Positions 5,313 through 39,708 of a DNA stretch of 40,988 bases are shown here, in pieces (position 1 is the first letter of the stretch; each line of letters starts with the position of its first letter). The DNA comes from a virus. Where the stretch lies: UHGV virus genome UHGV-0200626. One strand, written 5' to 3'. The position numbers were made by a program, and so were the translations under genes. Below the pieces are notes generated by a model. The model ran no database searches. It saw only the letters and a list, made by a program, of their open reading frames with translations, and was not told the DNA's origin.

Positions 5313-6044
5313 TTAGTAATCAACTACAGACCACCAGAAAATTCTTCCGATGATCTCAATGTCACTTAGATTCTTTTCTTCTTGTGGGTATTCCAGTGAG
5401 TTAAAGCTTCTAATGCTTACCTTGTCAGGCCCTGTTCGAAAGAGAATCTTAATGCGTTTCCAACCGTTCTCGTTAATGGCGTAAATCTTTCCGTCAACTA
5501 TTTTCTTATCGTTGGTGTTAACAGCAACTGTTGTTCCATCAGGAATGTTTGGCTCCATGCTGTTGCCACGAGCCGGAAAACAAACAACCCCGCTTCCATC
5601 ACTGTTCGCGCCAACTCTGCGAAGGGTTGATTTGGAAAAGCGCAACATAAAGCCGTTGTGATCTTCATCAATCACCCGACCATCCCCGCATGCAAACTCA
5701 ATATCTTTAAGGTAAGGAATTTCAACTTCATCACCTCTTAAAGGCGTTCCTCCATCCCATGGGTCCAAACATCCCCACGTGCTTTCATGAGGAATAGAAG
5801 ATTTTGGATCATAAGGTTCAACTCCCTCATCACGCATTGGCCCAGTTCCATCGGAAAGCCATTCCGTACGAACTCCAAGCACTTTTGATATTTCAAAAAG
5901 TTTGCGCGTATTGCGTGTTTTTCCAGACGTAAGTTTCCAGACGCTTGGCTGAGACATGCCAACAGCATTGCCAAGAGAAGCCTGAGTAAACCCAGCCTGA
6001 TCCATCGCGTATGTAAGCCTTTGAGAAAAAGTATCTAGTTTCAT
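5313..6044 (-). CDS. cI: CI-like repressor (N-terminal HTH, C-terminal S24 LexA-like peptidase domain)
   Basis: 243 aa; HTH-like segment (GFTQASLGNAVGMSQPSVWKL), C-terminal GNSMEP serine motif and a downstream Lys typical of S24 autopeptidases; divergent from a cro-like gene. Confidence 0.8.
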   Translation of the reverse strand: MKLDTFSQRLTYAMDQAGFTQASLGNAVGMSQPSVWKLTSGKTRNTRKLFEISKVLGVRTEWLSDGTGPMRDEGVEPYDPKSSIPHESTWGCLDPWDGGTPLRGDEVEIPYLKDIEFACGDGRVIDEDHNGFMLRFSKSTLRRVGANSDGSGVVCFPARGNSMEPNIPDGTTVAVNTNDKKIVDGKIYAINENGWKRIKILFRTGPDKVSIRSFNSLEYPQEEKNLSDIEIIGRIFWWSVVDY

Positions 6045-6055
6045 TCGGACAACCT

Positions 6056-6112
6056 ATAGCTACAGCTATTATTAGTCAAATATCTAAAGCTATTTACTTT
6101 CTGAATAGCTTT
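6056..6112. promoter_or_regulatory. OR-like operator region between cI and cro
   Basis: ATAGCT-AC-AGCTAT (6056..6069) and AAAGCTATT-N9-AATAGCTTT (6086..6112) inverted repeats in the 108 bp divergent intergenic region. Confidence 0.5.
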
Positions 6113-6152
6113 GGCTATTATTCTTGTTGTGAATTCAGCAGGAGTTATTTTT

Positions 6153-6383
6153 ATGGTCAACAAGGCTATTAAAGCGGCTATTGACTCAGTAGGAAGTCAG
6201 CAAAAGTTAGCTGATGCCTGCGGTGTTAAGCAGCCGTCTGTATGGGCTTGGTTGCATGGGAAGAAAAGGGTATCCGCTAAAAATGCCAAGCGCATTGAAA
6301 TGGCTACCAATGGAAGCATCCCTGCATACCTGATTCGCCCTGATTTATCCGATTTGTTCCCCAATCCGAACAAAGCAGCTTAA
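6153..6383 (+). CDS. cro: Cro-like HTH regulator
   Basis: 76 aa from ATG 6153 with AGGAG upstream; HTH-like segment QQKLADACGVKQPSVWAWLHGKK; divergent from cI. Confidence 0.6.
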   Translation: MVNKAIKAAIDSVGSQQKLADACGVKQPSVWAWLHGKKRVSAKNAKRIEMATNGSIPAYLIRPDLSDLFPNPNKAA

Positions 6384-6502
6384 TAAAGCAAATTTTTATA
6401 CCGAACGGCCCGGTATACGGTCGGGTGCCCGGCGTGGTCAAGGATGACTGTCAATGGTGCACGATAAAAACCCAAATTATTTACCTATGGAGATAGTAAG
6501 AA

Positions 6503-6799
6503 ATGACACAAACAAGTTACAGCAAGCCAACACAGCGAGAAATTGATCGCGCTGAAACTGATTTACTCATCAACCTGTCAACGCTTACCCAGCGCGGTTT
6601 GGCAAAGATGATTGGCTGTCATGAATCGAAGATAAGCAGAACGGACTGGAGATTTATTGCTTCGGTCTTGTGTGCTTTCGGAATGGCATCAGACATCAGT
6701 CCGATTAGCAGGGCTTTTAAGTATGCATTGGATGGAATCACAAAGAAAAAATCCCCGGCTGCCACCGAGGATTCTGAGCAAATTGATATGCAATTCTGA
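6503..6799 (+). CDS. cII: CII transcriptional activator
   Basis: 98 aa; C-terminus KKKSPAATEDSEQIDMQF matches lambda CII KKRPAATERSEQIQMEF; correct position after cro. Confidence 0.8.
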   Translation: MTQTSYSKPTQREIDRAETDLLINLSTLTQRGLAKMIGCHESKISRTDWRFIASVLCAFGMASDISPISRAFKYALDGITKKKSPAATEDSEQIDMQF

Positions 6800-14238: not shown

Positions 14239-14573
14239 TCCCTAATTGTCTGTGGAATGACCAATTTAGCAATTTCCTTTGTCTGTGGAAAGCAGGGAAA
14301 CCACGCGCCGGGCGTGAATAAATATCCCGGTATTGAATCGACTGTTGGCTGCCGCTTGGCGGCCTTTTTCATTTCAGGCTCACGGGAATCATCCGCTACG
14401 TGCTTTGTTGATAAATCCAGCCCGTGAAGCCTGACACTTTTCAAACACACACACACAGCGCCATCCGAAAAATCGGAGGTGAGGCCTATGAAAATGCCAT
14501 ACAAACAAGATTTCATCGCTGCGCTACTTGCCGCCAAGGAGCAGGGTATTGGTGCAATGCTGGCTTTTATCAT
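14235..14573 (-). CDS. Possible upstream ORF of the antisense module (doubtful)
   Basis: ATGA stop/start overlap with the zinc-ribbon gene suggests coupling, but the longest form overlaps the holin start on the other strand, the only non-overlapping ATG is at 14372, and a plus-strand hairpin with T-run lies inside it. Confidence 0.25.
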
Positions 14574-14811
14574 GGCGTATCTGCGTGGTCGCTATAACGG
14601 CGGCGCGGTAACAAAAACGCTAATTGATGCGCTGATGTGCGCGATGATTGCCTGGTTCGTTCGTGACCTTCTGGACTTTATCGGCCTGAGCAGCAACCTC
14701 GCCTACATAGCCAGCGTCTTTATTGGATACATCGGCACCGATTCGATCGGCAATCTTATTAAAAAACTTGCAGCAAAAAAGGCGGGAGTTGACGATGCAA
14801 ACCAGTCCTGA
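14488..14811 (+). CDS. S: Holin, lambda S family, with dual-start MKM motif
   Basis: [40 protein letters not shown] closely matches lambda S; GGAGGTGAGG upstream. Confidence 0.85.
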
Positions 14812-15244
14812 CGGAATTGCTCTGATAAAAAAATTTGAAGGTTGTCGGCTGACTGCTTACCCCGACCCCGGAACGGGAGATGCGCCGTGGACCATCGGCT
14901 ATGGCTGGACCCATCCGGTTGACGGAAAGCCAGTAAAGCGCGGTATGACTATCGACCAGCAAACCGCTGACAGGCTTCTGAAAACAGGGCTTGTTGGTTA
15001 TGAGAATGACGTGCTGAAAGTTGTCAGGGTGAAGCTGACACAAGGCCAGTTCGACGCACTGGTGTCGTTCGCTTACAACGTTGGGTCGCGTGCTCTTTCC
15101 ACATCTACACTGCTGAAAAAGCTGAATGCTGGCGATATAAAAGGCGCGGCAGATGAATTTCTGCGCTGGAATAAATCAGGCGGAAAGGTGATGCCGGGGC
15201 TCACGAATCGCCGCAAGGCAGAGCGAGCTCTGTTCCTGTCATGA
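14795..15244 (+). CDS. Endolysin, P22 gp19-type lysozyme
   Basis: [40 protein letters not shown]...[11 protein letters not shown]; the C-terminus matches P22 lysozyme (RRRRERALFLS) from memory. Not the lambda R transglycosylase. Confidence 0.8.
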
Positions 15245-15708
15245 TTAGCGCACTGGTTAAGCGTTACTGGCTGCAGTTGCTGGTGCTGGCGTTAATCGGC
15301 GCACTGGCTTTCTTCGTGAACCACTACCGCGACAACGCCATCACTTACAGAGACCAGCGCGATAAGGCCACTGAGAAACTCCTCCTGGCGACCGCCACCA
15401 TTAAAGACATGCAGACCCGCCAGCGTGATGTCGCTGCACTGGATGCCAAATACACCGGAGAACTGGCTGATGCGAAAGAAACCATTGAGCGTCTGCATAG
15501 CGATGTCATTGCTGGCCGTAAGCGGCTGCAAGTCGCCGCCACCTGTGCAAAGTCAACGACCGGAGCCAGCAGCATGGGCGATGGAGAAAGCCCAAGACTT
15601 ACAGCAGATGCTGAACTCAATTATTACCGTCTACGAAGTGGAATCGACAGGATAACCGCGCAGGTTAACTACCTGCAGGAATACATCAGGACGCAATGCC
15701 TGAAATGA
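15241..15708 (+). CDS. Rz: Rz i-spanin
   Basis: N-terminal TM segment then [10 protein letters not shown]...[16 protein letters not shown]..., matching lambda Rz. Confidence 0.8.
15470..15655 (+). CDS. Rz1: Rz1 o-spanin lipoprotein, embedded in the +1 frame of Rz
   Basis: [20 protein letters not shown] lipobox followed by a Pro-rich segment; entirely nested in Rz. Confidence 0.7.
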
Positions 15709-15739
15709 TTTTTTTGCAAATCACAAAGTCAATTTAATG

Positions 15740-15763
15740 AGCCTCGCGATGCGGGGCTTTTTG
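15740..15763 (+). terminator. Intrinsic terminator after the lysis cassette (first of two)
   Basis: GCCTCGC-gat-GCGGGGC (one G-U pair) followed by TTTTT. Confidence 0.5.
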
Positions 15764-15769
15764 CAATAA

Positions 15770-15794
15770 ATGCGTACCGCAACGCATGTTTTTT
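15770..15794 (+). terminator. Intrinsic terminator after the lysis cassette (second of two)
   Basis: ATGCGT-accgca-ACGCAT followed by GTTTTTT. Confidence 0.5.
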
Positions 15795-15909
15795 ACACCG
15801 AACCTGCCCCTTTGGAATGGGCCTTTGAGGATACCAGTTAGTGCTGGCGAGCCTCGGTGGGCTGGTTTCCTGTGCGGCAAAGGTTCATTTCAAAGAGTAG
15901 GTACACGCT

Positions 15910-16407
15910 ATGAAATCATTAACCCTCTTCAATCAACCAATTCGTATCGGTGAAGATGGCATGATCTGCCTCACTGATATGTGGAAAGCCAGTGGTAAAA
16001 GTGAATCTGAATCGCCTTACCACTACCTGCGAAACAAGCAGACCAAAGAGTTCTTAGCCGAGCTGGAGAAAAACCACGAATCTGTGGTTTTTACTGAGCG
16101 CGGTGTACACGGTGGAACATATGGCGGGAAGTTTGTTGCTTACGATTATGCGGCTTGGTTAAACCCCGGGTTCAAGTACGCGGCCTATAAAGTCCTCGAT
16201 GACTACTTCACCGGAGAACTTCAGCATCGCAACAGCTTAAGTGCGCAGCTCAACATGAAATGTCATGAGTTTGACCAGAAGAAAGACATGGCGAGTTTCT
16301 GCGGACAAGGGCTGGCGGCATGGCGCTATACGAAGCCAGTGTTGGTCGCTGAGATTAACTCCCTGGCTAACCAGCTGCAGATTACGATCCCCGGGCTTCC
16401 GGGATGA
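15910..16407 (+). CDS. KilA-N domain protein
   Basis: N-terminal segment (ICLTDMWKASGKSESESPYHYLRNKQTKEFLAEL...GVHGGTYGGKFVAYDYAAWLNPGF) fits the KilA-N/APSES pattern. Confidence 0.55.
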   Translation: MKSLTLFNQPIRIGEDGMICLTDMWKASGKSESESPYHYLRNKQTKEFLAELEKNHESVVFTERGVHGGTYGGKFVAYDYAAWLNPGFKYAAYKVLDDYFTGELQHRNSLSAQLNMKCHEFDQKKDMASFCGQGLAAWRYTKPVLVAEINSLANQLQITIPGLPG

Positions 16408-27677: not shown

Positions 27678-29027
27678 ATGGCTACGTGGCAACAGGGTAT
27701 TAATTCTGGTGGTTTTCTGGCTGGCATCGGTACACAAAATGAGAATGCGCCAAAGGCAAGCGACATTAACGCAACGCTTGGTCTGATCCGCGAAAACAAT
27801 GAACTGGCTCGCTCAGGTGCAAATAACGTTGGTCTGACCGCGTTACGTGGTCTGGCTGGAGTTGCTGATATTTACAATCAGGAACAGCAACAGAAAGCTA
27901 TTAGTGCGTTCAATAAGGTTCACGCTGATGCATGGGCTTCTGGTGATCCATCGGGACTATTTAAGTTTGCCCAGGAAAATCCAGCGTTTGTTGCACAGGC
28001 ACAACAGGCGTTTTCCGGTCTTAATGATCAGCAACGCAACGATATGGGCGATTTAGCCATGAGGGCTAACGTCGCTCTTTCTCAGGGACCGGAAGCCTAC
28101 AGTAAATTCATTACTGACAACAAGGACAGGTTAAATCGCGTGGGGGCGAATGCTGACTGGATGATTCAGACAGGTATCCAGAATCCCGAGCAGCTATCAC
28201 ACATGCTGACTACTATGTCTCTCGGTGCGCTTGGACCAGAAAAGGCGTTTGCTGTTCAGGATAAGATGGCTGGTCGCCAACTTGAGAAAGGGCGATTGGA
28301 TGAAAGCATCCGTCAGGCTGATATGGAGAATGCGAGAGGATGGGCAAATATCCAGAACGCTCAACTAGACAGGGCTCAGCGGGCACAAATGCATAATGAT
28401 AACGTCGCCCTGAAGTTGCAGGAATTAGGTATGAAGCAACAGGAAAGCGGAAAGATTGACCCAAAACTTGTTCGAGATCTGAACAGTGATATTAATGGGT
28501 TCTCAAAGAATTATTCTGCAATGCGCAGTGCTTCTGACAACCTACAAGCCCTTGGGAAGCGCAACACTCCAGCCGCGCAGTTGGGAATGATTTTCAACTA
28601 TATGAAATCGCTGGATCCGCAATCTGTGGTACGCGAAGGTGAGCAAGTGCAGGTAAAACGCACTGATGGAATATTCGGCACACTTGGTAACTATGTTAGC
28701 CAATTATCTAACGGCAAGATGCTGAATAATGAGCAAGTCCAAGACTTAATCAACACCTCAAAACTGATGGCAAATACTGAAGGCGAAAAGTTTAACCAGC
28801 AAATGGATGATTATCTTTCAACTTATGGAGATTCTCTCCCCAGCGGACTAACTAAGCAATTGCAATCCAGAAAAGCCAAGCTGTATGAAGATATTCAGCA
28901 GCCTGCGCAACAACAGACACAACAAGCAACATCTGGCGGTCAAACATTTCGAGAAGGTATGACCGCGAAAAATCCTAAAACTGGTCAGAAAATTATTTAC
29001 AGGAACGGACAATGGCAACCAATGTAG
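27678..29027 (+). CDS. Ejection protein (P22 gp20-like)
   Basis: 449 aa; synteny with the P22 injection-protein cluster. Confidence 0.5.
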
Positions 29028-31180
29028 GTTTACCAGAGGGGTTTGTTCTGGATGAACAGCCTGATAACTCACAACTTCCTGATGGCTTTGTGCTTAATTC
29101 CCAACCAGAACAGCAGCAATCTCCTTTGGTTTCACCAGAGGAAAATTCCAGACAGGAAAATGTTGTTAATAATGCTAACGGTTTCGACCGTTTTATGTAT
29201 GGCGTTCTCAGTGGATTGATGGATGTTGGTAAAGGTGTTGGCCTGTTTCAGGATATGACACCAGAAGAGCAAGCCGCAATTCAGTCTCTACAGCAGAAGT
29301 TAGCGGCAAAACCATCAACCGCACAAGATGTTGGTGAGTTTGTTGGACAAGCAGCGCCATTTGTTAGTGGTGGTGGGATTATTTCTCAGGTTCCGAAAGG
29401 GGCGGCAAGGCTGGCTGCCGCCGCAGGGCTTGGTGCGGTTGAAGGTGGTGTTGTTGCTAACGGAACCGGTGGCAATGTAACTACAGGGGCGGCTATAGGT
29501 GCTGCCGCTGGTCCAATTGCTGAATTGGCATCTCCAGTGATTAGCAAAGCAGCCAGTGCGGTTACGAAGAGGTTTAGGCCTCCATCGGCAGAAATGTCTC
29601 AGGCATCTGAACTTAGTGGAATGGCGAGGGTTGCAACGAAAGCTACAGATGTGAATCCAATAACAGGAAACAGATCTGGTTTAAATGCTCTCGCGGAAGC
29701 TGTTTCACCAGATGATTCTGTGCTACAGGCCGCCCGCAATCTTGGGATGGAGGATGCCTTAACTCCCGGCATGTACTCCAGCAACCCTTCTTACCGCGCG
29801 TTTGAAAATGCTTTAGCTGCAACCCCAGGGAATAAACTGTTCCACGCACAGCGAGAGGCCATTAGTAGGCTTGGAGAGCAGGCAGATAAATTTATTAATG
29901 ATTTTGGTGGGAGCGTTGATAAGGACTTTATCAATCAAAAGGTCAAAAGCTCTTATGAGGAGTTAAGATCAAACCTGAAGCGCCAAGAAGACACTCTATA
30001 CAATCAAATTAGAGCAAAAATTCCAACAAGAGCTACCGTAGATACCACCCATACCACTAACGCCATTGAGGATATTGCAGATGATGTCGGTGGGCTAGAA
30101 AAACTAAAATCGCTATATCCTCAACTGTCAAAGACCTTGGAACAAATAGACCCAAACACCGCCCCGACTTATGGTCTTCTTGATGCAGTTCGACGGCAGG
30201 TTGGAAGGGCTCTTGGCAAAGAGATGGATAAAGGGCCATATAGCGGCATCGACGCTCGGCACCTTGGAATTATTGAAAGCGCACTGATACAAGATCAGGG
30301 AGCCGCTGCTGCCAAATATGGTGCAGAGGATACATGGAATTTAGCTAGAGAGATCGGGAGAAAGAGATTCGCAGTGCAGGCAGCCGCTGTTCAAAATCTT
30401 GGCAGAGACTTGGATAAAGGAATAGTGCCGCAATTACAGCAAGCTATCGTCGATATGTCTCAAGGAAAGGGCGGTGACTTCCGTCGCCTAGTTTCAAATC
30501 TTCCTGATGACATGGTGCAACCAGCTGTTGCCACCGCAATGAATAGGGCTTTCACTACGTTCGCTAAATCTCCCGGGCAGTCACTTGGTGTTCCTGGATT
30601 TGTTAAGTGGTATGGAGGGCTATCAAGAAACAAATCAAATATGCAGGCATTGAGCCGGGCAATTGGCTATCCGGCTACGCGTAGGTTGAGAAACATCTAT
30701 GAGGTGGCTTCTGGCATGCAAAGGGTGGGCAGCGAGAAGGTGTATTCCTCCTCTCAAATTGACCGGATGATGAATCAGTTCGCAGGAGAGAAGGGAATGC
30801 TTGGGCGTATATATGGAATAGGAAAAGACGTGGCTAAAGCAGAAGGGCTAACCACAGCCATCGGAGCGCCTGGAGCCGGTACGGCAGGGGTACTCTTTAG
30901 CCTCCTCCGTTCTGGTAAAAACTCAAGAATGGCTGCCGCTGATGAATTAATAGCATCTCCGGCTTTTAAAAATCTCTCAAAAAGGATTGCCGCAGGTCAC
31001 GCCAGCACCCCAGCATCTAGGAAATCGGTGGATGCTTCAATGCAGAAAGTGAAACCATATAGGGATTGGGTAAATACGCTATCAGCGGACGAGAAGAAAA
31101 ATCTAGCCCGCGTTGGTATTGTCGCTTTTCTCAGTAGTAACGATTCTTTGCCCACAGAGCAACAAGCAGGGCAACAATAA
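29012..31180 (+). CDS. Ejection protein (P22 gp16-like)
   Basis: 722 aa, last gene of the ejection cluster; synteny. Confidence 0.5.
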
Positions 31181-31225
31181 TCCAACCGACTGTTACCATA
31201 TTAACCTCCCGATAGCCATGGATGG

Positions 31226-31549
31226 CTATTCTGACATCCTTTTTAATTTATTGTATGACTCTATAGAATCTGTGCACAACTTCATGAACTCTTGAAGTGA
31301 CATTCCTAGGCGAGAAATTTCCGTATTCAAAAAACGTTCAATAAATTCATCTCCGCCGGGCATCTGTGTTGCTTCTTGAAAAGCAAACATTTGTTTAAAT
31401 GTTCCACACATACCAGCAACTTTAGCTGTAACTAACATGTCGTTAGCAAATTTCAGATCCTTATCTTGCGATTGTGCAAGACCACTAATTAGAAAACAGA
31501 ATGCACCTATAACCCATCGCTTCACACCAACCTCCTTAGTTTTGAGCAT
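31226..31549 (-). CDS. Secreted/periplasmic protein of unknown function (predicted signal peptide)
   Basis: 107 aa; N-terminus KRWVIGAFCFLISGLAQSQD looks like a Sec signal peptide; at the P22 sieA-equivalent position. Confidence 0.45.
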   Translation of the reverse strand: MLKTKEVGVKRWVIGAFCFLISGLAQSQDKDLKFANDMLVTAKVAGMCGTFKQMFAFQEATQMPGGDEFIERFLNTEISRLGMSLQEFMKLCTDSIESYNKLKRMSE

Positions 31550-31578
31550 GACGAAATTAACCAGCCATCAGGCTGGTA

Positions 31579-31761
31579 TTAGTCACATTCTATTTCTTTT
31601 GTCGAGGTCCATACATAAGGGTCTGAGCAAACAACCTCTCCATTTATCATGACGTCATAGCCCATTAGATATGAGTTACCACCAACAATCTGAGCGGCTA
31701 TGACGCTAATGCTGGCGGCGCAGGCTGCACCAAAAACGAAACCAATTAATATATTTTTCAT
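31579..31761 (-). CDS. Small secreted or membrane peptide (signal peptide, two Cys in the mature part)
   Basis: 60 aa; [24 protein letters not shown] hydrophobic leader, then about 36 residues with two Cys. Confidence 0.4.
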
Positions 31762-31792
31762 TTTAATTCCAAATAGTTATAGGATGAAAGTT

Positions 31793-31978
31793 ATGACCAT
31801 AGAAGAACGTCTGAACAACATTGAGTTGAACCAAACCCTGCTTGACCAGCGACTTTCAGATCTTGAGCTTAAAGATCTAGATGCGCAAATATCAGAAGCA
31901 GAAGCCAAGCTCTCCAGCCTAAACCACCGCAAGAAGCAAATCCGCAACAGAATTACTCAGGGACGCGGAAGCTGTTGA
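31793..31978 (+). CDS. Possible small coiled-coil protein
   Basis: ATG 31793 with AGGA about 7 nt upstream; heptad-like sequence; 3' end overlaps the convergent minus-strand ORF by 26 bp. Confidence 0.3.
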   Translation: MTIEERLNNIELNQTLLDQRLSDLELKDLDAQISEAEAKLSSLNHRKKQIRNRITQGRGSC

Positions 31979-32162
31979 GGTGGGATGCTAGGTCTCTATC
32001 GTTAAAATCAAGGCTGCTAATCATTTCATTGTAAATGGCGTTTTTATCTTCCATTGGCAGTCTTGAGTAAACCAGACACAGAGCATATTTCAGGGAGTTT
32101 AGCTCTTTCTCTAGCTCTTCCTTGCTTGACGTTGTTGACTTAATAAACTGTTTTTTATTCAT
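31953..32162 (-). CDS. Hypothetical protein downstream of mnt
   Basis: 69 aa; ATGA overlap with mnt. Confidence 0.4.
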   Translation of the reverse strand: MNKKQFIKSTTSSKEELEKELNSLKYALCLVYSRLPMEDKNAIYNEMISSLDFNDRDLASHLNSFRVPE

Positions 32163-32410
32163 TTTGCATCCTTACCATACATGGTCTTTAGCGTCTCAAC
32201 ATCGTGTTCAAGATCTATCAATCGTGATGCTATAGTTGCAAGGTCTAGTGCTTGAATGTGTTTATTTTTTTCGGTCCACGCTTCAAGTGCCGCGACCATC
32301 TCAGCATTTAATGAACGAGAATTAGCCTCAGCCAGTTCAATAAGACGTTCCTTTATCTCTACAGGAAGCCTCAGATTCACTTGAGGGTTTTTGTACTTAC
32401 GATCAGACAT
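32159..32410 (-). CDS. mnt: Mnt-like ribbon-helix-helix repressor
   Basis: 83 aa, same length as P22 Mnt; N-terminal NLRLPVEIKERLIELAEANSRSLNAEMVAAL fits the RHH pattern; divergent from arc-ant. Confidence 0.65.
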   Translation of the reverse strand: MSDRKYKNPQVNLRLPVEIKERLIELAEANSRSLNAEMVAALEAWTEKNKHIQALDLATIASRLIDLEHDVETLKTMYGKDAK

Positions 32411-32514
32411 CGGCGCATCCTGAATAATTATTTACCACAGGATATGTAGGTATCTATTGACTATCAATGCGTACCTAAATACTATGTATGCGTACCACAT
32501 ACAAAGGAGCAAAA
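32411..32514. promoter_or_regulatory. Divergent mnt / arc-ant promoter-operator region
   Basis: 104 bp AT-rich intergenic region containing two direct ATGCGTACC copies. Confidence 0.45.
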
Positions 32515-32661
32515 ATGAAAGTTAAGACATTAAGGATGCCAGAATGGCTAGAAAAGGCTTTGGAGCAGTCCGCGAAAAAGGATGATCGGTCGTTCAGTAA
32601 TGAGGTATTGAGGAGACTAAAGGAGTCAGTAGCTAAGGATGGAATTGTTTGTCCAGAATGA
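32515..32661 (+). CDS. arc: Arc-like ribbon-helix-helix repressor
   Basis: 48 aa ORF absent from the track (below its length cutoff): MKVKTLRMPEWLEKALEQSAKKDDRSFSNEVLRRLKESVAKDGIVCPE; AGGAG upstream; position between mnt and ant. Confidence 0.55.
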   Translation: MKVKTLRMPEWLEKALEQSAKKDDRSFSNEVLRRLKESVAKDGIVCPE

Positions 32662-32727
32662 GTAAAGCCCAAGCTATTGCGAGTAGCTCGGGCTTAAATC
32701 GCCAGTAAATTTTGAGGAAAAACTGAC

Positions 32728-33657
32728 ATGAAAAGTATAGCAACAGCAGTATCTACTATCAACGTGCCATTCCACGGCGCAGAGCTTTATGTCGTCAATC
32801 ACAACGGTGAACCGTACACCCCAATGAAACCTATCGTTGAAGGCATGGGTATGGATTGGGCTTCACAGTTTACGAAAATAAAGCAACGGTTTAAAACCTG
32901 CATTGTGAAAATCACAATGCAGCTTCCTGGCGATGAACAGTGCCGTGAGATTATTTGTTTGGCACTTCGCAAACTTGCTGGCTGGCTGCAAACCATCAGT
33001 CCTAACAAAGTTCGCCCTGAAATCCGCGACAAGGTAATCCAGTATCAGGAAGAGTGTGACGATGTCCTATACGAGTACTGGACTAAAGGCCATGTAGTTA
33101 ACCCACGCAAAGCTAAAAAGGCGTTGCCGGGTAAAATCACCACTGAACAGCAGGAAGCCATTAAACAACTCGTCATGAGTCGCGGTCAGTCTCTGCCAAA
33201 AGAAAAACAGGCGAAGGCGATGATCACCATGTGGTCGTCACTGAAATCCCATTTTGGATGTTCGTACAAAGAAATCAGTGAGGAGCAGTTTACCGAAGCA
33301 CTATCACTTGCAGCTCGAGTTCCACTTGAAGGTGAGTTCATTGGCAAACAAGAGAAGAAAACCAGCGAGCTTTCTGCAAAAGAAGCAAACAGCCTTGTAT
33401 GGTTATGGGATTATGCCAACCGTTCACAGGCATTATTCCGCGAACTGTATCCGGCGCTAAAACAAGTTCAATCGAACTATTCCGGCAGATGCTACGACTA
33501 CGGTCATGAATTCTCGTATGTTATCGGAATGGCGAGAGACGTTTTAATCAATCACACACGAGATGTTGATATCAATGAGCCAGACGGACCAGCGAATCTT
33601 TCCGCATGGATGAGACTTAAGAATAAAGAATTACCTCCTTCAGTACATAACTACTGA
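32728..33657 (+). CDS. ant: Antirepressor (Ant, AntA-type N-terminal domain)
   Basis: 309 aa; N-terminal VPFHGAELYVVNHNGEPYTPMKPIVEGMGMDW fits the antirepressor N-terminal pattern; downstream of arc as in P22 immI. Confidence 0.65.
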   Translation: MKSIATAVSTINVPFHGAELYVVNHNGEPYTPMKPIVEGMGMDWASQFTKIKQRFKTCIVKITMQLPGDEQCREIICLALRKLAGWLQTISPNKVRPEIRDKVIQYQEECDDVLYEYWTKGHVVNPRKAKKALPGKITTEQQEAIKQLVMSRGQSLPKEKQAKAMITMWSSLKSHFGCSYKEISEEQFTEALSLAARVPLEGEFIGKQEKKTSELSAKEANSLVWLWDYANRSQALFRELYPALKQVQSNYSGRCYDYGHEFSYVIGMARDVLINHTRDVDINEPDGPANLSAWMRLKNKELPPSVHNY

Positions 33658-33674
33658 CAGATAACCAACGCGAC

Positions 33675-33700
33675 AACCCAGCTTCGGCTGGGTTTTTTTA
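33675..33700 (+). terminator. Intrinsic terminator after ant
   Basis: CCCAGC-ttcg-GCTGGG followed by TTTTTTTA. Confidence 0.65.
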
Positions 33701-33767
33701 TGCCCAAAATTCACCGTAGCCATGCTGCGGCGATTCCTTGTATCTGGAGCAAATTAAATGACAGACA

Positions 33768-34262
33768 TTATCTAAAACAAGCAAACTCGCCATGATATTT
33801 TTCCCTGAATGCAATAGACATCAATTCGGCCAGCTCAATATCATCGGTATACCCAAGGCAAATAGACTTACCTTTTAGTTTGAACATAACTTTATATGTG
33901 TTTTTCCCTTTAAGAAGATGAACTCCTTTTATACCTGTATTGGATGATGAAACGCTGTTGGTTTTATTCTGACCTCTGGTTACTTCTCTTAGGTTTGAAA
34001 TTCTATTGTCATTTTTAACCCCGTTAATATGGTCAATTAACCCTTTAGGCCAGCATCCTTTCATATAAAACCAAGCAAGTCGGTGGCAAAGATACGATTT
34101 TCCATTAATCCGTATTGATAAGTAGTCGGCCTGTGAGTTCGTCTTAAATCCAGCAACCTTTCCGATACTGGAGCTACCAGAAGCTATCTTCCAAGTGAAG
34201 ACGCCTGTTTCTGGGTTGTAGTTGAGTGAAGAGGTTAATTCTTTATGAGTAATCATATTCAT
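33768..34262 (-). CDS. HNH endonuclease with AP2 domain (second copy)
   Basis: 164 aa; HNH core GLIDHINGVKNDNRISNLREVTRGQN and AP2-like TGIKGVHLLKGKNTYKVMFKLKGKSICLGY; paralogous at protein level to the ORF at 11427..11933. Confidence 0.7.
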   Translation of the reverse strand: MNMITHKELTSSLNYNPETGVFTWKIASGSSSIGKVAGFKTNSQADYLSIRINGKSYLCHRLAWFYMKGCWPKGLIDHINGVKNDNRISNLREVTRGQNKTNSVSSSNTGIKGVHLLKGKNTYKVMFKLKGKSICLGYTDDIELAELMSIAFREKYHGEFACFR

Positions 34263-34282: not shown

Positions 34283-36118
34283 ATGTCAAATATTGTGCCA
34301 AATGTTATAATTTCAATGCCAAGTCAACTATTTACGTTAGCCAGAAAATTCCAGGCCGCAAGCAATGGCAAGATATTCATTGGTAAGATAGATTCCGATC
34401 CTACGCTCCCACAGAATCAAGTGCAGGTTTATGTGGAAAACGAAGACGGTTCTCACGTTCCTGTTTCGCAACCAATAATCATTAACGCTGCTGGTTACCC
34501 TGTATATAACGGACAGATTGCCAAATTCGTAACTGAGCAAGGCCATTCTATGGCTGTTTATGATGCGTATGGTGCACAGCAGTTCAAATTCCCAAATGTG
34601 CTGAAGTATGATCCTGACAGACTTGCTCAAAAACTGGAGAGTGAATTTGGAACTAAATATATAGGAGCTCCGTCAGGTGGCGGGACTCTTTATGATATGC
34701 TGTGGTTTGTAACTCCAGCACAATTTGGAGCCCCAGAAGATGGGAGCGATGCATCATCCTCATTACAGGAAATGCTTGATTACGCTACACTAAACGGTAA
34801 GGCAGTATTATTCGATAAAGCGATTACATATAACATAGAAAAGCCGTTAATATATAAGCAAAAAGGATTTCGTAACAGCCGTATTCTTTGCTATGGTGGA
34901 CGAACAGTAATAAATCTAAACTCTTCAACAGCGACTTCCGGATTGCCTAATGATGAAAGCGGAATTGTTATGGATGTTAATGCTGCAATTGTTGTGTCGT
35001 CAACAAACCCGGACACCGCGGTAGTAAACCAACCACAGGCTGTATATATAGAAGGGTTGCAATTCACTTCAACTGCTGGCGGCTCCTACGGAATTTACCT
35101 TGGGAAAACACAGAACACAAATATTAACGATTGTAAGTTTACAGGATTCACTGAAGCTGATATCTGCGATAACGGTTCATGGGTATTCCGAGTTCATGGC
35201 TGCCAAAATTTTAGCGCAGCCAACTACGGTATATGGAAAAAAGCAGGTACATCTGCATGGATTACAGAGTGTTATTTCCAGAACTCTAACTATGCAGTGC
35301 GAATGAAGAGTGGGTACTCTGTTATATCCAAGTGCGCTAATGATTTTACTAAAAATGCCGCATATTGGCTTGAGTCATCGGATTATAACAGTGTATATAC
35401 TATTGATGAGTGTGGTTTTGAGAACTCAGGTTCAGATGCTGTTGTTAAAGTTTCTGGGCGTATTGCACTCACATGGTCTAACTGTATGGCCGGTAACATT
35501 GAATCTCAACAGTCACCTGTTCCTACAAATTTACTCTGGGTTCAGGGCGACAGCAACGGTTCTCAGTTTACACTGAGCAATATTAGATTCCTCAATACTG
35601 GTCGTCGCATATGGGATTTAGGGACTAATAGCCGCTTCACCATTAACCGTGTCAACCATGCCTCAGGTGGCTTAGCGGATGTATGGGGGGATGGCGCGCT
35701 TGTCAATGAAAACACCTATAACACCACCAAGTATATGTCCGCCGCCTACCCCAATGGTTTTCAGATTGGACCAACAGGACTTAGCGACTGGTTCTCATCA
35801 GGCGGAAACACTGGCTCATTACCAAACGACCAAAGATTTTTGAGGTACTCCAAGACGATTACCAGAGCATCTGGTCAGAGTTTTGGAACAACAACAATAA
35901 CGTTACCATTTCAGTTGAGTGTCGATGGTGAGGGGTATCAGGTTATTGTCACTCCGAGAGAGTATCCAAATAACGTCCCTACGTATCAATGGCATTGCGC
36001 AAGTTATAATCATACATCCACTGATGTTCAGATTATAGCTGGTCGTGGTGATGGCAACACAGCATGGTCAACAGTTATTGTTGACATATTAATAATTGGA
36101 AAAGCGATAAACTTTTAA
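34283..36118 (+). CDS. Tailspike: P22 gp9-like N-terminal head-binding domain with a different receptor-binding domain
   Basis: Residues 1 to about 110 match P22 gp9 (GKIFIGKIDSDP...VYVENEDGSHV...VLKYDPD); the remainder is unrelated and rich in N/G/S/T as in beta-helix depolymerases. Confidence 0.8.
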   Translation: MSNIVPNVIISMPSQLFTLARKFQAASNGKIFIGKIDSDPTLPQNQVQVYVENEDGSHVPVSQPIIINAAGYPVYNGQIAKFVTEQGHSMAVYDAYGAQQFKFPNVLKYDPDRLAQKLESEFGTKYIGAPSGGGTLYDMLWFVTPAQFGAPEDGSDASSSLQEMLDYATLNGKAVLFDKAITYNIEKPLIYKQKGFRNSRILCYGGRTVINLNSSTATSGLPNDESGIVMDVNAAIVVSSTNPDTAVVNQPQAVYIEGLQFTSTAGGSYGIYLGKTQNTNINDCKFTGFTEADICDNGSWVFRVHGCQNFSAANYGIWKKAGTSAWITECYFQNSNYAVRMKSGYSVISKCANDFTKNAAYWLESSDYNSVYTIDECGFENSGSDAVVKVSGRIALTWSNCMAGNIESQQSPVPTNLLWVQGDSNGSQFTLSNIRFLNTGRRIWDLGTNSRFTINRVNHASGGLADVWGDGALVNENTYNTTKYMSAAYPNGFQIGPTGLSDWFSSGGNTGSLPNDQRFLRYSKTITRASGQSFGTTTITLPFQLSVDGEGYQVIVTPREYPNNVPTYQWHCASYNHTSTDVQIIAGRGDGNTAWSTVIVDILIIGKAINF

Positions 36119-36257: not shown

Positions 36258-37451
36258 TTACTCCACCTTTTCATCAAGCCAGTCCGCCCACCACTGCATC
36301 ATTTCTCTGCGCTTATCGAGATACTGAGCATGGTTGTAAATCCCGCGCACAGATCCGCCGTTGGCATGTGCCAGTTGCACTTCAATAGCATCAGCAGGCC
36401 ATTCGTGCTCGTTCATAATCGTGCTGAATTCATGCCTGAATCCGTGACCGCTTTCCAGACCCTCATAGCCAATTTGTTTGATCACAAGCAATACCGCGTT
36501 CTCGCAGATTGGCTTCTTCTTATCGTTGCGACCGGCAAAAACAAACTCTGATACTGGTTTAGTGATTGAGCTTAGCGTAGTGAGAAGTTCAACCACCTGG
36601 TCTGACATAGGAACCACATGAATTTTGCGTCCCTTCATCACACTGGCGTCGATGGTGATAATCCTGTTTTCAAAATCGACGTTCTTCCATAGCATGGAAC
36701 GAAGCTCTTTTGTTCTGAGGGCTGTGTAGCGTAAAACTTTGGTCGCAATGAGCGATACGATGCTTCCTGAAAATGTTGCCAGTGCTTTGTTAAATGCCGG
36801 GATCTGGTCTGCAGGAAGAAACGGGAAGTTTTTCTTGCGGTATCCCTTCATGGCGTCAGCAAGGTCAGGTGCCGGGTTATATTTAGCCCTACCAGTGACA
36901 ATAGCGTAACGGAAAACCTCGCCGCATCTTCTGCGGGCTTTGTTGGCTCGCTCCATTGCACCGCGATCTTCAAATCTGCGGATTACTTCCAGCAGTTGCA
37001 TCGGCTCAATATCCTGAATTTCAAGGCCGCCGATGATAGGTAAAATGTCGTCATCAAACATTTTTGCAAGTTCAGTCGCATACCCTACTGACCAGACTTG
37101 CTTCTTGTGCTCGTACCATTCCTTGTAAATCGCACTAAAGGAATTGTTGTTAGACGAAGCCTTTTTCGCCTTTACCGGATCGATGCCAACCGAGATGTCT
37201 TTCCTCGCAGTCCATGCCTTATCCCTTGCCTCCTGCAAAGTCATTAGCGGATATTTTCCTACGGTCAGGATTTTCTCCTTACCGTCAATCTTGTAGCGAA
37301 GCTGCCATACCTTTTTCCCGGATACAGGGACATAAAGGTACAGGCCATTACCATCGAGAAGGCGGTATGGTTTTTCTTTCGGCTTTGCTGCTTCAATCTG
37401 CTTAACAGTGAGCATGAGTAAAAATCCGGTGGGTAAAATTATTTTATCCAC
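36258..37451 (-). CDS. intS: Tyrosine integrase (CPS-53 IntS-like)
   Basis: 397 aa; C-terminal catalytic residues within HGFRHEF and RGIYNHAQY; immediately downstream of the tRNA 3' end. Confidence 0.85.
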   Translation of the reverse strand: MDKIILPTGFLLMLTVKQIEAAKPKEKPYRLLDGNGLYLYVPVSGKKVWQLRYKIDGKEKILTVGKYPLMTLQEARDKAWTARKDISVGIDPVKAKKASSNNNSFSAIYKEWYEHKKQVWSVGYATELAKMFDDDILPIIGGLEIQDIEPMQLLEVIRRFEDRGAMERANKARRRCGEVFRYAIVTGRAKYNPAPDLADAMKGYRKKNFPFLPADQIPAFNKALATFSGSIVSLIATKVLRYTALRTKELRSMLWKNVDFENRIITIDASVMKGRKIHVVPMSDQVVELLTTLSSITKPVSEFVFAGRNDKKKPICENAVLLVIKQIGYEGLESGHGFRHEFSTIMNEHEWPADAIEVQLAHANGGSVRGIYNHAQYLDKRREMMQWWADWLDEKVE

Positions 37452-37576
37452 TTTTTACCCGTCATGGAGTGCGGCTGTCAACGATCTGACGCGAACCATT
37501 ACGAACTGTGAATCTACGGAAGGCTTGATATTCAGGGGATTTTGCGGACTGGTACGGATGGGAGCGAACTGATAAA

Positions 37577-37651
37577 TGGTGTCCCCTGCAGGAATCGAAC
37601 CTGCAATTAGCCCTTAGGAGGGGCTCGTTATATCCATTTAACTAAGAGGAC
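37577..37651 (-). tRNA. argW: tRNA-Arg (anticodon CCU), argW-like
   Basis: Reverse complement reads GTCCTCTTAGTTAAATGGATATAACGAGCCCCTCCTAAGGGCTAATTGCAGGTTCGATTCCTGCAGGGGACACCA (75 nt) with acceptor stem, CCT anticodon in a CTCCTAA loop, GGTTCGATTCC T-arm and CCA end. Confidence 0.95.
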
Positions 37652-37726: not shown

Positions 37727-38659
37727 TTATGCCGGGTTTTTATCATTTTTCTTAATGTTTTCCGCACGTTCTGCTTTTTGGCGTGCTTCTGCTTTACGCT
37801 TGTTGCTCATGTCGTTACGAATCTGTGCATGACTCATTAACGCGAAGATAAAGGTGCCGCCGCAGATGTTCCCCGCTAAAGTAGGTAGTGCGAAGGGCCA
37901 GATGAAATCGCTCCAGTGCAGCGTACCGTTAAACACCAGATAGAGGATTTCAACAGAACCGACCACGATATGGGTGGTGTCACCCAGGGCAATAAGCCAG
38001 GTCATCAATATAATCACCACAATCTTTGCCGCACCTGCTGCAGGAAACATCCATACCATAGTGGCGATCAGCCAGCCGGAAATGATCGCGTTGGCAAACA
38101 TCTCGCTGGGGGTGTTCTTCATCACATCCATGCCGATTTTGACAAATGCATCGCGAGTTTCTTCATTGAAGATAGGCATATATTCAAATGCCCACGCAGC
38201 AATACCAGTCCCGAGAATATTACCCAGCAGCACGACTCCCCATAACCGCATAAGTAAGCCAACGTTGCTCATTGTCGGTTTTTGCATGACGGGTAGTACC
38301 GCAGTCACGGTGTTTTCGGTAAATAATTGCTGGCGGGCCATTATGACGATAATAAAACCAAAGGTATAACCGAGATTCTCCAGTAAGAAGCTGCCCGGCA
38401 CACCTTCCAGTTCGACATGAAATATCCCTTTTGCCAGTAACGAAGCGCCCATCGACAGACCCGCCGCAATGGCTGACCACAGTAGCGCCATTGCGTCGCG
38501 TTCCAGCTCTTTTTCACCATCCTGGCGGATATGCTCATGAATTGCCATCGCCCGGGAGGGGAGTCGGTCTTCATCTATTTCTATTTTTTTGCCGCGCTCT
38601 TTTTCTTCGCTCTCAACTTCAATTTCGTCGCTGTGTTGATCAATTTTGTCGTTGTCCAT
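37727..38659 (-). CDS. yfdC: Inner membrane protein, YfdC-like (formate/nitrite transporter family)
   Basis: 310 aa polytopic membrane protein; same position and length as E. coli yfdC next to argW. Confidence 0.65.
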   Translation of the reverse strand: MDNDKIDQHSDEIEVESEEKERGKKIEIDEDRLPSRAMAIHEHIRQDGEKELERDAMALLWSAIAAGLSMGASLLAKGIFHVELEGVPGSFLLENLGYTFGFIIVIMARQQLFTENTVTAVLPVMQKPTMSNVGLLMRLWGVVLLGNILGTGIAAWAFEYMPIFNEETRDAFVKIGMDVMKNTPSEMFANAIISGWLIATMVWMFPAAGAAKIVVIILMTWLIALGDTTHIVVGSVEILYLVFNGTLHWSDFIWPFALPTLAGNICGGTFIFALMSHAQIRNDMSNKRKAEARQKAERAENIKKNDKNPA

Positions 38660-38952
38660 GGTCTCTTCTCTTGAATTAGCACGTATAGCTAAAGCGTAGC
38701 GGCTTTTTTGCTCGCAACTGGCGGGAGTTACTCTGAAAATGTAGAAAAGGCTGCGTTTGCCTTTTTCTGTTTCTATAGAATCAAGTAGCCTACAGGGCGG
38801 CGATTACCAGGCTATGATCAAATCAGCAAATCAGGGCGTCTGGACATCAGTTGACGTGCTGTTACAATCGCCCACACCTAAACAGGCGGATACGGTATCG
38901 TTCCGTCATGGATGGCAAACTGCATAAGCCATAAAAAAACAGGGAGACATTT

Positions 38953-39708
38953 ATGAAGCTTCGCCTGTCGGCGCTTGCTCTGGGAACTACGCTTCTGGTG
39001 GGGTGTGCGAGTTCCGGCACAGATCAGCAAGGGCGTTCTGACCCGTTAGAAGGGTTCAACCGCACCATGTACAACTTCAACTTCAATGTATTAGACCCGT
39101 ATATTGTTCGACCGGTCGCTGTCGCCTGGCGTGATTATGTTCCGCAACCGGCGCGTAACGGTTTGAGCAACTTTACTGGCAACCTTGAAGAACCTGCGGT
39201 GATGGTTAACTACTTCTTGCAGGGCGACCCTTATCAGGGGATGGTCCACTTTACCCGCTTTTTCCTGAACACCATTTTGGGGATGGGCGGTTTTATTGAT
39301 GTTGCAGGGATGGCGAACCCGAAACTGCAACGGACTGAACCTCACCGCTTCGGTAGTACGCTTGGTCATTATGGCGTGGGTTATGGGCCTTACGTCCAGT
39401 TACCGTTCTACGGTAGCTTCACGCTGCGTGATGACGGTGGTGATATGGCGGATGGGCTTTACCCGGTTCTTTCCTGGCTGACCTGGCCGATGTCTGTGGG
39501 TAAATGGACGCTTGAAGGGATAGAAACTCGTGCGCAGTTGTTGGATTCCGATGGTCTGCTGCGTCAGTCGTCCGATCCTTATATTATGGTGCGCGAAGCG
39601 TACTTCCAGCGTCATGATTTCATCGCTAATGGCGGCGAACTCAAACCGCAGGAAAATCCGAACGCACAAGCGATTCAGGATGATTTAAAAGATATTGATT
39701 CTGAATAA
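38953..39708 (+). CDS. mlaA: MlaA (VacJ) outer-membrane lipoprotein
   Basis: 251 aa; lipobox LLVGC; sequence recognised as E. coli MlaA from memory. Confidence 0.8.
   Translation: MKLRLSALALGTTLLVGCASSGTDQQGRSDPLEGFNRTMYNFNFNVLDPYIVRPVAVAWRDYVPQPARNGLSNFTGNLEEPAVMVNYFLQGDPYQGMVHFTRFFLNTILGMGGFIDVAGMANPKLQRTEPHRFGSTLGHYGVGYGPYVQLPFYGSFTLRDDGGDMADGLYPVLSWLTWPMSVGKWTLEGIETRAQLLDSDGLLRQSSDPYIMVREAYFQRHDFIANGGELKPQENPNAQAIQDDLKDIDSE

Follow-up and report, generated by a model that had tools for sequence, protein, structure and literature searches.

The second immunity region (immI) of phage P22, annotated at 14519-16035 of NC_002371 with mnt, Pmnt/Pant, Oarc, Omnt, arc, sar and ant, served as the reference for our analysis. 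In the P22-like phages, this variable region has been called the 'ant moron', which frequently combines mnt, arc, sar and ant with unrelated cargo genes and falls into ten types among sixteen genomes (epsilon34 paper; Villafane et al., 2008, PMC2629481). Phages CUS-3 and HS-1 were described as apparently without arc, with ant possibly controlled differently (PMC2629481), and phage L as having neither arc nor ant (PMC8022706). Here we analyze the immI locus of a Lederbergvirus (P22-like) Escherichia coli prophage, the UHGV virus genome UHGV-0200626, whose closest phages are Kapi1, E212 and CUS-3; the 40,988 nucleotides of this stretch are referred to as the window. Our literature search found no experimental work on this immI allele. 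As judged from its sequence, the locus is a complete, apparently functional module of the P22 type, and by analogy we consider it highly probable that it acts as a second-immunity module that follows the logic of P22 with an operator set of its own. The region as such is of a known kind: its genes and logic are familiar, relatives have already been annotated by homology, and the established picture of immI is unchanged. The sole element that appears mildly novel is the control DNA, in which three phased GTAC-centred boxes and back-to-back predicted promoters are conserved across a wide lineage.

A sequence-only reading of this DNA had proposed two divergent ribbon-helix-helix (RHH) repressor genes flanking a region with repeated motifs, followed by an antirepressor gene and a terminator. 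All of these features were recovered in place, both in the sequence and in the list of open reading frames (ORFs) (Table 1). The module lies between the gene for a 722-residue homologue of the DNA-transfer protein (29012-31180) and the tailspike gene (34283-36118), matching the site of immI in P22, and its gene order and orientation are those annotated for P22, with mnt divergent from the arc-ant operon. The 83-residue product of the leftward gene is indeed a Mnt-like RHH protein: the Pfam family Arc (PF03869) matched it with 40.1 bits (E = 3.2e-10), compared to a gathering score of 20.4. Its alignment with P22 Mnt spans residues 8-80 (32% identity, E = 6e-12), and its best match among the solved structures in the PDB is 1mnt, P22 Mnt. 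The gene is under strong purifying selection, and the beta-strand of the protein is near-invariant in all related loci examined (PQVNLR-L/M-P or -S).

The second repressor gene, an ORF of 48 codons, had been noted as unannotated. Its product matched the same Pfam family with 25.1 bits, again above the gathering score of 20.4, and is 31% identical to P22 Arc (E = 6e-6). Translation of this ORF, on which the sequence-only reading depended, is supported by strong purifying selection and by the intact reading frame, 48 or 46 codons long, in 79 of 80 related viral loci. Compared to Salmonella phage SEN22, arc carries 17 synonymous and 2 nonsynonymous differences, corresponding to a ratio of nonsynonymous to synonymous change (dN/dS) of ~0.02; in more distant loci, synonymous sites are saturated and dN amounts to 0.06-0.30. 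Judged by this pattern of substitution, the 48-codon ORF is a real gene. A longer version of 57 residues, starting from an ATG at 32488, was rejected. This ATG precedes the predicted Pant start, neither NRG857C nor CUS-3 conserves the extension, and the AGGAG Shine-Dalgarno sequence is correctly spaced for the ATG at 32515 instead. In E. coli AVS0578 (L005:1878-2003, WP_223196799.1), the Prokaryotic Genome Annotation Pipeline (PGAP) calls the arc homologue a 41-residue 'hypothetical protein' that starts at the internal Met8; the DNA-binding beta-strand is thereby lost, and other genomes annotate a full-length Arc family protein.

Single-sequence models of the two repressors were computed as monomers, although both proteins are obligate dimers. 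The Arc-like model (predicted local distance difference test score, pLDDT, 76) has a strand at residues 3-6 and helices at 10-23 and 25-42, and the Mnt-like model (pLDDT 70) has an N-terminal coil, merged helices and a separate helix at 55-77. Foldseek searches with both models against the PDB returned no match at E<=0.001, a result that is uninformative given the insufficient size of the models and the obligate dimeric state of both proteins. The Mnt families phrog_795 and phrog_2685 are described in PHROGs as 'partition protein ATPase', and the same RefSeq label is attached to P22 mnt (NC_002371, 14519-14770). Given that P22 mnt itself carries this description, the label is a propagated misnomer for an 83-residue RHH repressor. 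Some relatives contain tandem mnt pairs, namely CUS-3 (L002:2207-2736) and the IMG/VR loci L026 and L037; in the latter two, a TTACCA repeat marks the point at which the 3' end of a second mnt-like gene abuts the sequence upstream of the mnt copy that was matched. In the window, mnt is followed by a 69-codon ORF that is probably co-transcribed with it. The ATGA overlap of the two genes amounts to translational coupling, and the partner is therefore expected to be expressed together with Mnt in the lysogen. This gene also follows mnt in Kapi1 (Kapi1_062) and in NRG857C.

The identification of the 309-residue protein as an antirepressor was borne out by strong matches to P22_AR_N (151.8 bits, E = 1e-44, cut-off 30.7) and P22_AR_C (100.7 bits, E = 4.7e-29, cut-off 22.4). 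The AntA domain that the sequence-only reading had suggested looking for did not turn up: at E<=1, the Pfam search of this protein returned no AntA family, only P22_AR_N, P22_AR_C and two weak unrelated matches. Ant is 57% identical to P22 Ant overall and ~90% identical over the C-terminal ~110 residues, and this C-terminal part is common to many Shiga toxin (Stx) and lambdoid phages at 90-95% DNA identity. The terminator ascribed to the end of the module is present just beyond the end first assigned to it, with a folding energy of -13.7 kcal/mol (z = -2.15).

Between arc and ant, we identified a putative homologue of the antisense RNA sar, a fourth immI component that was absent from the sequence-only reading. 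The match to Rfam RF00262 covers the full length of the model (positions 1-68) and scores 29.3 bits (E = 0.0055), which is under the gathering threshold of 43; we nonetheless accept it as a sar homologue. The RNA folds into two hairpins with a minimum free energy of -25.9 kcal/mol (z = -5.5), and 9 of the 21 pairs of the consensus structure show compensatory double changes among 14 distinct sequences, P22 included. The complement of the ant ribosome-binding site lies in the first loop, UUUUUCCUC. Moreover, the predicted Psar is the best promoter match of the region, agreeing with the consensus at 10 of 12 positions plus the TG extension, and its position is that of the annotated P22 Psar.

The intergenic control region (32411..32514) is exactly 104 bp long and contains the repeated motif that had been noted, with ATGCGTACC occurring exactly at 32467-75 and 32488-96. 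The repeat extends to three boxes, O1 to O3, at an exact spacing of 21 bp, sharing the consensus T-R-S-R-T-A-Y-C with GTAC or GTAT at the centre. Within the window, a TRSRTAYC triple at exact 21-bp spacing occurs only here, and 200 first-order Markov simulations of the window yielded no pairs at this spacing, which together place the repeat beyond chance. The boxes keep their positions in 54 distinct intergenic sequences of related loci in Escherichia and Salmonella, with ATGCGTACC or ATACGTACC at O2 in 47 of the 54, and three further loci from Yersinia, Chimaeribacter and Pantoea have the same box layout. O1 and O2 lie in an inverted repeat with 18-nt arms, which is centred at 32462 between the two -35 hexamers, and O3 overlaps the predicted start of Pant, where the P22 annotation places Omnt. 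Across 21 diverged loci, the 58-bp core from 32446 to 32503 is 81-100% identical to the window, whereas the adjacent 5' untranslated region of mnt is only 18-45% identical and the synonymous sites of both flanking genes are saturated. In sequence comparison, the core is a clear phylogenetic footprint. A third exact copy of ATGCGTACC, the sole other one in the window, is found at 15770-15778 (+), far from immI. It is probably coincidental, as ~0.3 exact copies are expected by chance on both strands of the window.

The promoters predicted by consensus scan are conserved as well. For Pant, 52 of 54 related sequences have TTGACT as the -35 hexamer and 48 of 54 have TAnTAT as the -10 hexamer. For Pmnt, TAnnnT is kept at the -10 position in all 54 distinct sequences, with TACTAT in 12. 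The two promoters are predicted to stand back-to-back, their -35 hexamers sharing 1 bp. Transcripts of the module are predicted to begin at ~32492 (+), ~32432 (-) and ~32727 (-). Other candidates were discarded. An alternative Pmnt, TAGATA-18-AATAAT, has a -10 hexamer that is not conserved in close relatives, in contrast to TTGATA-17-TAnnnT (54 of 54), and the best minus-strand candidate found by eye for a P22-style Pmnt overlapping Pant, TACATA-17-GATAGT, is poor. In some other phages, LexA control of ant has been reported. Here, the CTG-N15-CAG sequence read by eye at 32420-32440 does not fit the LexA box CTG-N10-CAG.

These elements can be arranged into a mechanism analogous to that of P22. 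In the lysogen, Mnt produced from Pmnt would bind the conserved GTAC-centred boxes at Pant, most likely O3 at the start site, alone or together with the spacer box O2. Binding of Mnt would keep arc and ant switched off, so that the cI repressor of S24 type stays active. Upon infection, in turn, Mnt would be absent and Pant would fire. Accumulating Arc would then shut off Pant, and probably also Pmnt via O1/O2, which occupy the spacers of the two promoters. The sar RNA transcribed from Psar on the opposite strand would pair with the ant ribosome-binding site, and Arc and sar together should keep the Ant pulse short. If Mnt control is lost, Ant would bind and inactivate the cI-type repressor without cleavage and the prophage would be induced, while the terminator after ant would insulate the module within the late operon. 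The pairing of proteins with boxes, the transcription start sites and the target of Ant are points that we infer from the P22 precedent. On that basis, Mnt is most likely to bind O3, perhaps along with O2, and Arc to bind O1/O2. The proposal that the prophage has two layers of lysogeny control in addition to cI/cro holds up in terms of gene content, since the cI/cro/cII region is present at 5313-6799 and the immI genes are intact.

Several observations weigh against this P22-like picture. All three boxes have one core, yet the beta-strand residues of the two proteins differ (Q-N-R in Mnt, V-T-R in Arc). Three types of Arc N-terminus (KVKTLRMP, KKVKTIRMP and SSVRFP/VSVRMP) occur with boxes that are essentially the same, and since the Arc N-terminus varies while the boxes stay constant, the boxes track Mnt. 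Because the predicted Pmnt is back-to-back with Pant rather than overlapping it, stimulation of Pmnt by Mnt through relief from Pant competition, as in P22, may not apply. Added to this are the sub-threshold Rfam score of sar, the modest confidence of the single-sequence structure models (pLDDT 76 and 70) and the uninformative fold searches. The changes at the DNA-facing positions of Arc are conservative, however, and its specificity may be constant throughout. Among the loci examined, no natural swap pairs this Arc with a different Mnt.

It is conceivable, if rather doubtful, that this lineage has a control design distinct from that of P22, in which a single GTAC-centred box is used three times, phased by two helical turns, across back-to-back promoters; tetrameric Mnt may bridge the boxes and Arc may share them. 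We regard as unlikely the specific and simpler wiring in which a Mnt tetramer, assembled via the C-terminal helices, bridges all three boxes two helical turns apart, with Arc using the same boxes less cooperatively or binding another element, for example the 13-bp palindrome ATTGA-CTA-TCAAT between the -35 hexamers. The single core and 21-bp phase of the boxes, the near-invariant Mnt beta-strand as opposed to three types of Arc N-terminus over the same boxes, and the predicted C-terminal Mnt helix all point in this direction. Conversely, the DNA-facing residues of the Arc variants change conservatively (T to S, with R kept), such that all types may share one specificity, and in P22, Arc and Mnt each have their own operator.

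A different view accepts the module as intact and moves its main role elsewhere. The Ant pulse at infection would inactivate the repressors of resident heteroimmune lambdoid prophages, allowing cross-induction or immunity escape, and resident Mnt would block incoming relatives. P22 Ant inactivates several lambdoid repressors, and a C-terminal part that is ~90% identical to P22 Ant and shared with many Stx and lambdoid phages agrees with an effector of broad action. We consider it improbable that this is the main role; it is compatible with second immunity as outlined above, and the sequence does not separate the two roles. Far less credible is a decaying immI remnant that has lost its regulatory function, as in phage L, ST64T or HK620. 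Although the stretch that separates the ejection genes from the tailspike varies greatly and is known in degraded forms (PMC2629481, PMC8022706), the three ORFs are of full length, purifying selection on arc and mnt is strong, the control core is near-invariant, and the sar structure and Psar are conserved. We practically dismiss the notion that the RHH proteins have no part in ant control and are regulators of the antitoxin or partition type (CopG/ParG/FitA-like), for which the phrog_795 description and weak Pfam matches to FitA-like, RHH_1, HicB and TraY could be cited, given that these matches stay below gathering (FitA-like 20.6 vs 27, RHH_1 15.1 vs 20.5, HicB 14.4 vs 21) whereas Arc PF03869 is above, and that the ORF list, Pfam and PHROG place no toxin or ParA/ATPase gene adjacent.

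The module is widespread and subject to exchange. At least part of the region was detected in 184 of 5,426 complete E. coli genomes, with >=80% of it in 31, and 110 related IMG/VR loci were confirmed by tblastn. A wider genome scan with Arc added only the three loci from Yersinia, Chimaeribacter and Pantoea, which have the same arrangement. Salmonella phage SEN22 (NC_028696), annotated with an 'Arc-like repressor' and an 'anti-repressor Ant', is 82.6% identical at the DNA level from mnt through the operators and arc into the start of ant, a gene that a transposon has truncated in this phage. In SEN22, CUS-3 (CP000711) and many E. coli prophages, the control core is the same or nearly the same. 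CUS-3 and NRG857C differ in having another C-terminal half of Arc (46 residues; joint at ~32555, inside arc) and 230-300 bp of extra DNA before ant. In CUS-3, the intact 46-residue arc of this family (MKVKTLRMPEKLEK...) is located at L002:2842-2982, unannotated and inside the misc_feature 'bsq2' ('boundary sequence'). Its presence contradicts the published apparent absence of arc from this phage (PMC2629481).

Kapi1 (MT813197) illustrates this exchange. It has the same gene order, downstream HNH endonuclease gene and argW integration, and its flanks are ~98% identical to the window (29407-32199 and 33325-33774). The intervening stretch from 32200 to 33324 is replaced, and with it the greater part of mnt, the operators, the arc and sar genes and the N-terminal two thirds of ant; the Mnt and Arc beta-strands of Kapi1 read EPQINIRIS and KYPLRIP. 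The segment from the N-terminus of mnt to the N-terminus of ant has thus been swapped as one piece relative to Kapi1, with joints at ~32200 and ~33325, as fits a self-contained specificity unit. The Mnt N-terminus, the operators and the Arc N-terminus always move as a unit.

Further genes of the window place the module in its prophage context. The integrase gene is followed by the argW tRNA gene and then by host genes, indicating that the element is a prophage integrated at argW. The right prophage end is visible in the window (36258-37651, then host genes), and the left end lies outside it. The HNH endonuclease gene may be a homing-type insertion into the late operon; the same arrangement is seen in Kapi1 and NRG857C. 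The small cargo genes between 31226 and 31978 may provide prophage-expressed exclusion or conversion functions. The Kapi1 annotation assigns signal peptides to the homologues of the 107- and 60-residue cargo proteins.

Table 1. Coordinates of the immI features and of neighbouring and other prophage genes in the window.
Feature	Position	Strand	Description
mnt-like maintenance repressor, 83 aa	32159..32410	-	N-terminal RHH (beta-strand PQVNLRLP) and predicted C-terminal helix
69-aa ORF	31953..32162	-	ATG overlaps mnt stop (ATGA); phrog_16466, E = 5.5e-51, function unknown
Predicted Pmnt	32439..32467	-	-35 TTGATA (32467..32462), 17-bp spacer, -10 TATCCT (32444..32439); consensus scan, 9/12
Box O1	32446..32454	.	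GTAGGTATC here, GTGCGTACC and similar in diverged relatives; in Pmnt spacer
Predicted Pant	32457..32485	+	-35 TTGACT (32457-62), 17-bp spacer, -10 TACTAT (32480-85); would drive arc-ant; consensus scan
Box O2	32467..32475	.	ATGCGTACC; between Pant -35 and -10
Box O3	32485..32503	.	ATGCGTACC at 32488-96, inside dyad TGTATG-N7-CATACA; conserved in 54 sequences
arc-like repressor, 48 aa	32515..32661	+	RHH (beta-strand KVKTLRM); AGGAG 6 nt upstream of ATG
Putative sar-like antisense RNA, ~67 nt	32661..32727	-	complementary to ant ribosome-binding site (GAGGA, 32714-18); ends at arc stop codon
ant antirepressor, 309 aa	32728..33657	+	P22_AR_N and P22_AR_C; phrog_245 anti-repressor Ant, E = 5.9e-97
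Predicted Psar	32734..32762	-	TTGATA, 17-bp spacer, TG-extended -10 TATACT; inside first ant codons
Intrinsic terminator	33675..33701	+	hairpin 33675..33694 with 8-bp stem, 5 GC pairs and 4-nt loop; T7 run
Cargo ORF, 107 aa	31226-31549	-	between DNA-transfer gene and mnt
Cargo ORF, 60 aa	31579-31761	-	between DNA-transfer gene and mnt
Cargo ORF, 92 aa	31700-31978	+	Kapi1 homologue noted as XhlA-like
HNH endonuclease, 164 aa	33768-34262	-	PF13392, phrog_99; between ant terminator and tailspike
cI-type repressor	5313-6044		S24 peptidase type
Cro-type gene	6111-6383		
cII	6503-6799		
Integrase	36258-37451		after tailspike
tRNA-Arg(CCT) (argW)	37577-37651		after integrase
Host genes: FNT-family transporter, MlaA	within 37727-39708		beyond argW

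Taken together, P22-like E. coli prophages of this type appear to carry the complete mnt-arc-sar-ant module, of which the arc gene of 46-48 codons and the sar RNA are easily missed in annotation. By analogy with P22, the module would offer a route to prophage induction or anti-immunity that is independent of cI cleavage, and the conserved phased boxes represent specific operator candidates for an uncharacterised Mnt/Arc specificity class. The lineage is widespread, occurring in prophages from Escherichia, Salmonella, Yersinia, Pantoea and relatives. If its control design were truly distinct, the swaps of the Arc N-terminus over unchanged boxes would offer an existing system in which to examine how operator specificity is divided or shared among paralogous RHH repressors.

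The sequence-only reading had stated that the locus reproduces the P22 immI architecture, which is true of the genes, their order and the logic but does not extend to the control DNA. In both systems, Mnt has 83 residues with an RHH domain, followed by a C-terminal helix that is predicted for the present protein, and Arc consists of little more than a minimal RHH fold. Both place sar opposite the ant ribosome-binding site and Psar, here a predicted promoter, within the first ant codons with the same -10 sequence, TGCTATACT, and a terminator follows ant at the same place. The dimensions are likewise similar, with 104 bp between mnt and arc here compared to 90 bp in P22, and an arc-ant gap of 66 compared to 68 bp. 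On the other hand, Mnt and Arc are only ~32% identical to the P22 proteins, the Mnt beta-strand carries Q-N-R at its DNA-facing positions, as in P22 Arc, instead of the H-N-R of P22 Mnt, and mnt is translationally coupled to the 69-codon ORF. The P22 Oarc and Omnt sequences have no match with <=3 mismatches anywhere in the window. Whereas the P22 promoters overlap almost entirely on opposite strands (14793-14821 vs 14826-14798) and enclose two unrelated palindromic operators, the promoters of the present locus are back-to-back, by prediction only, and are accompanied by three GTAC-centred boxes 21 bp apart.

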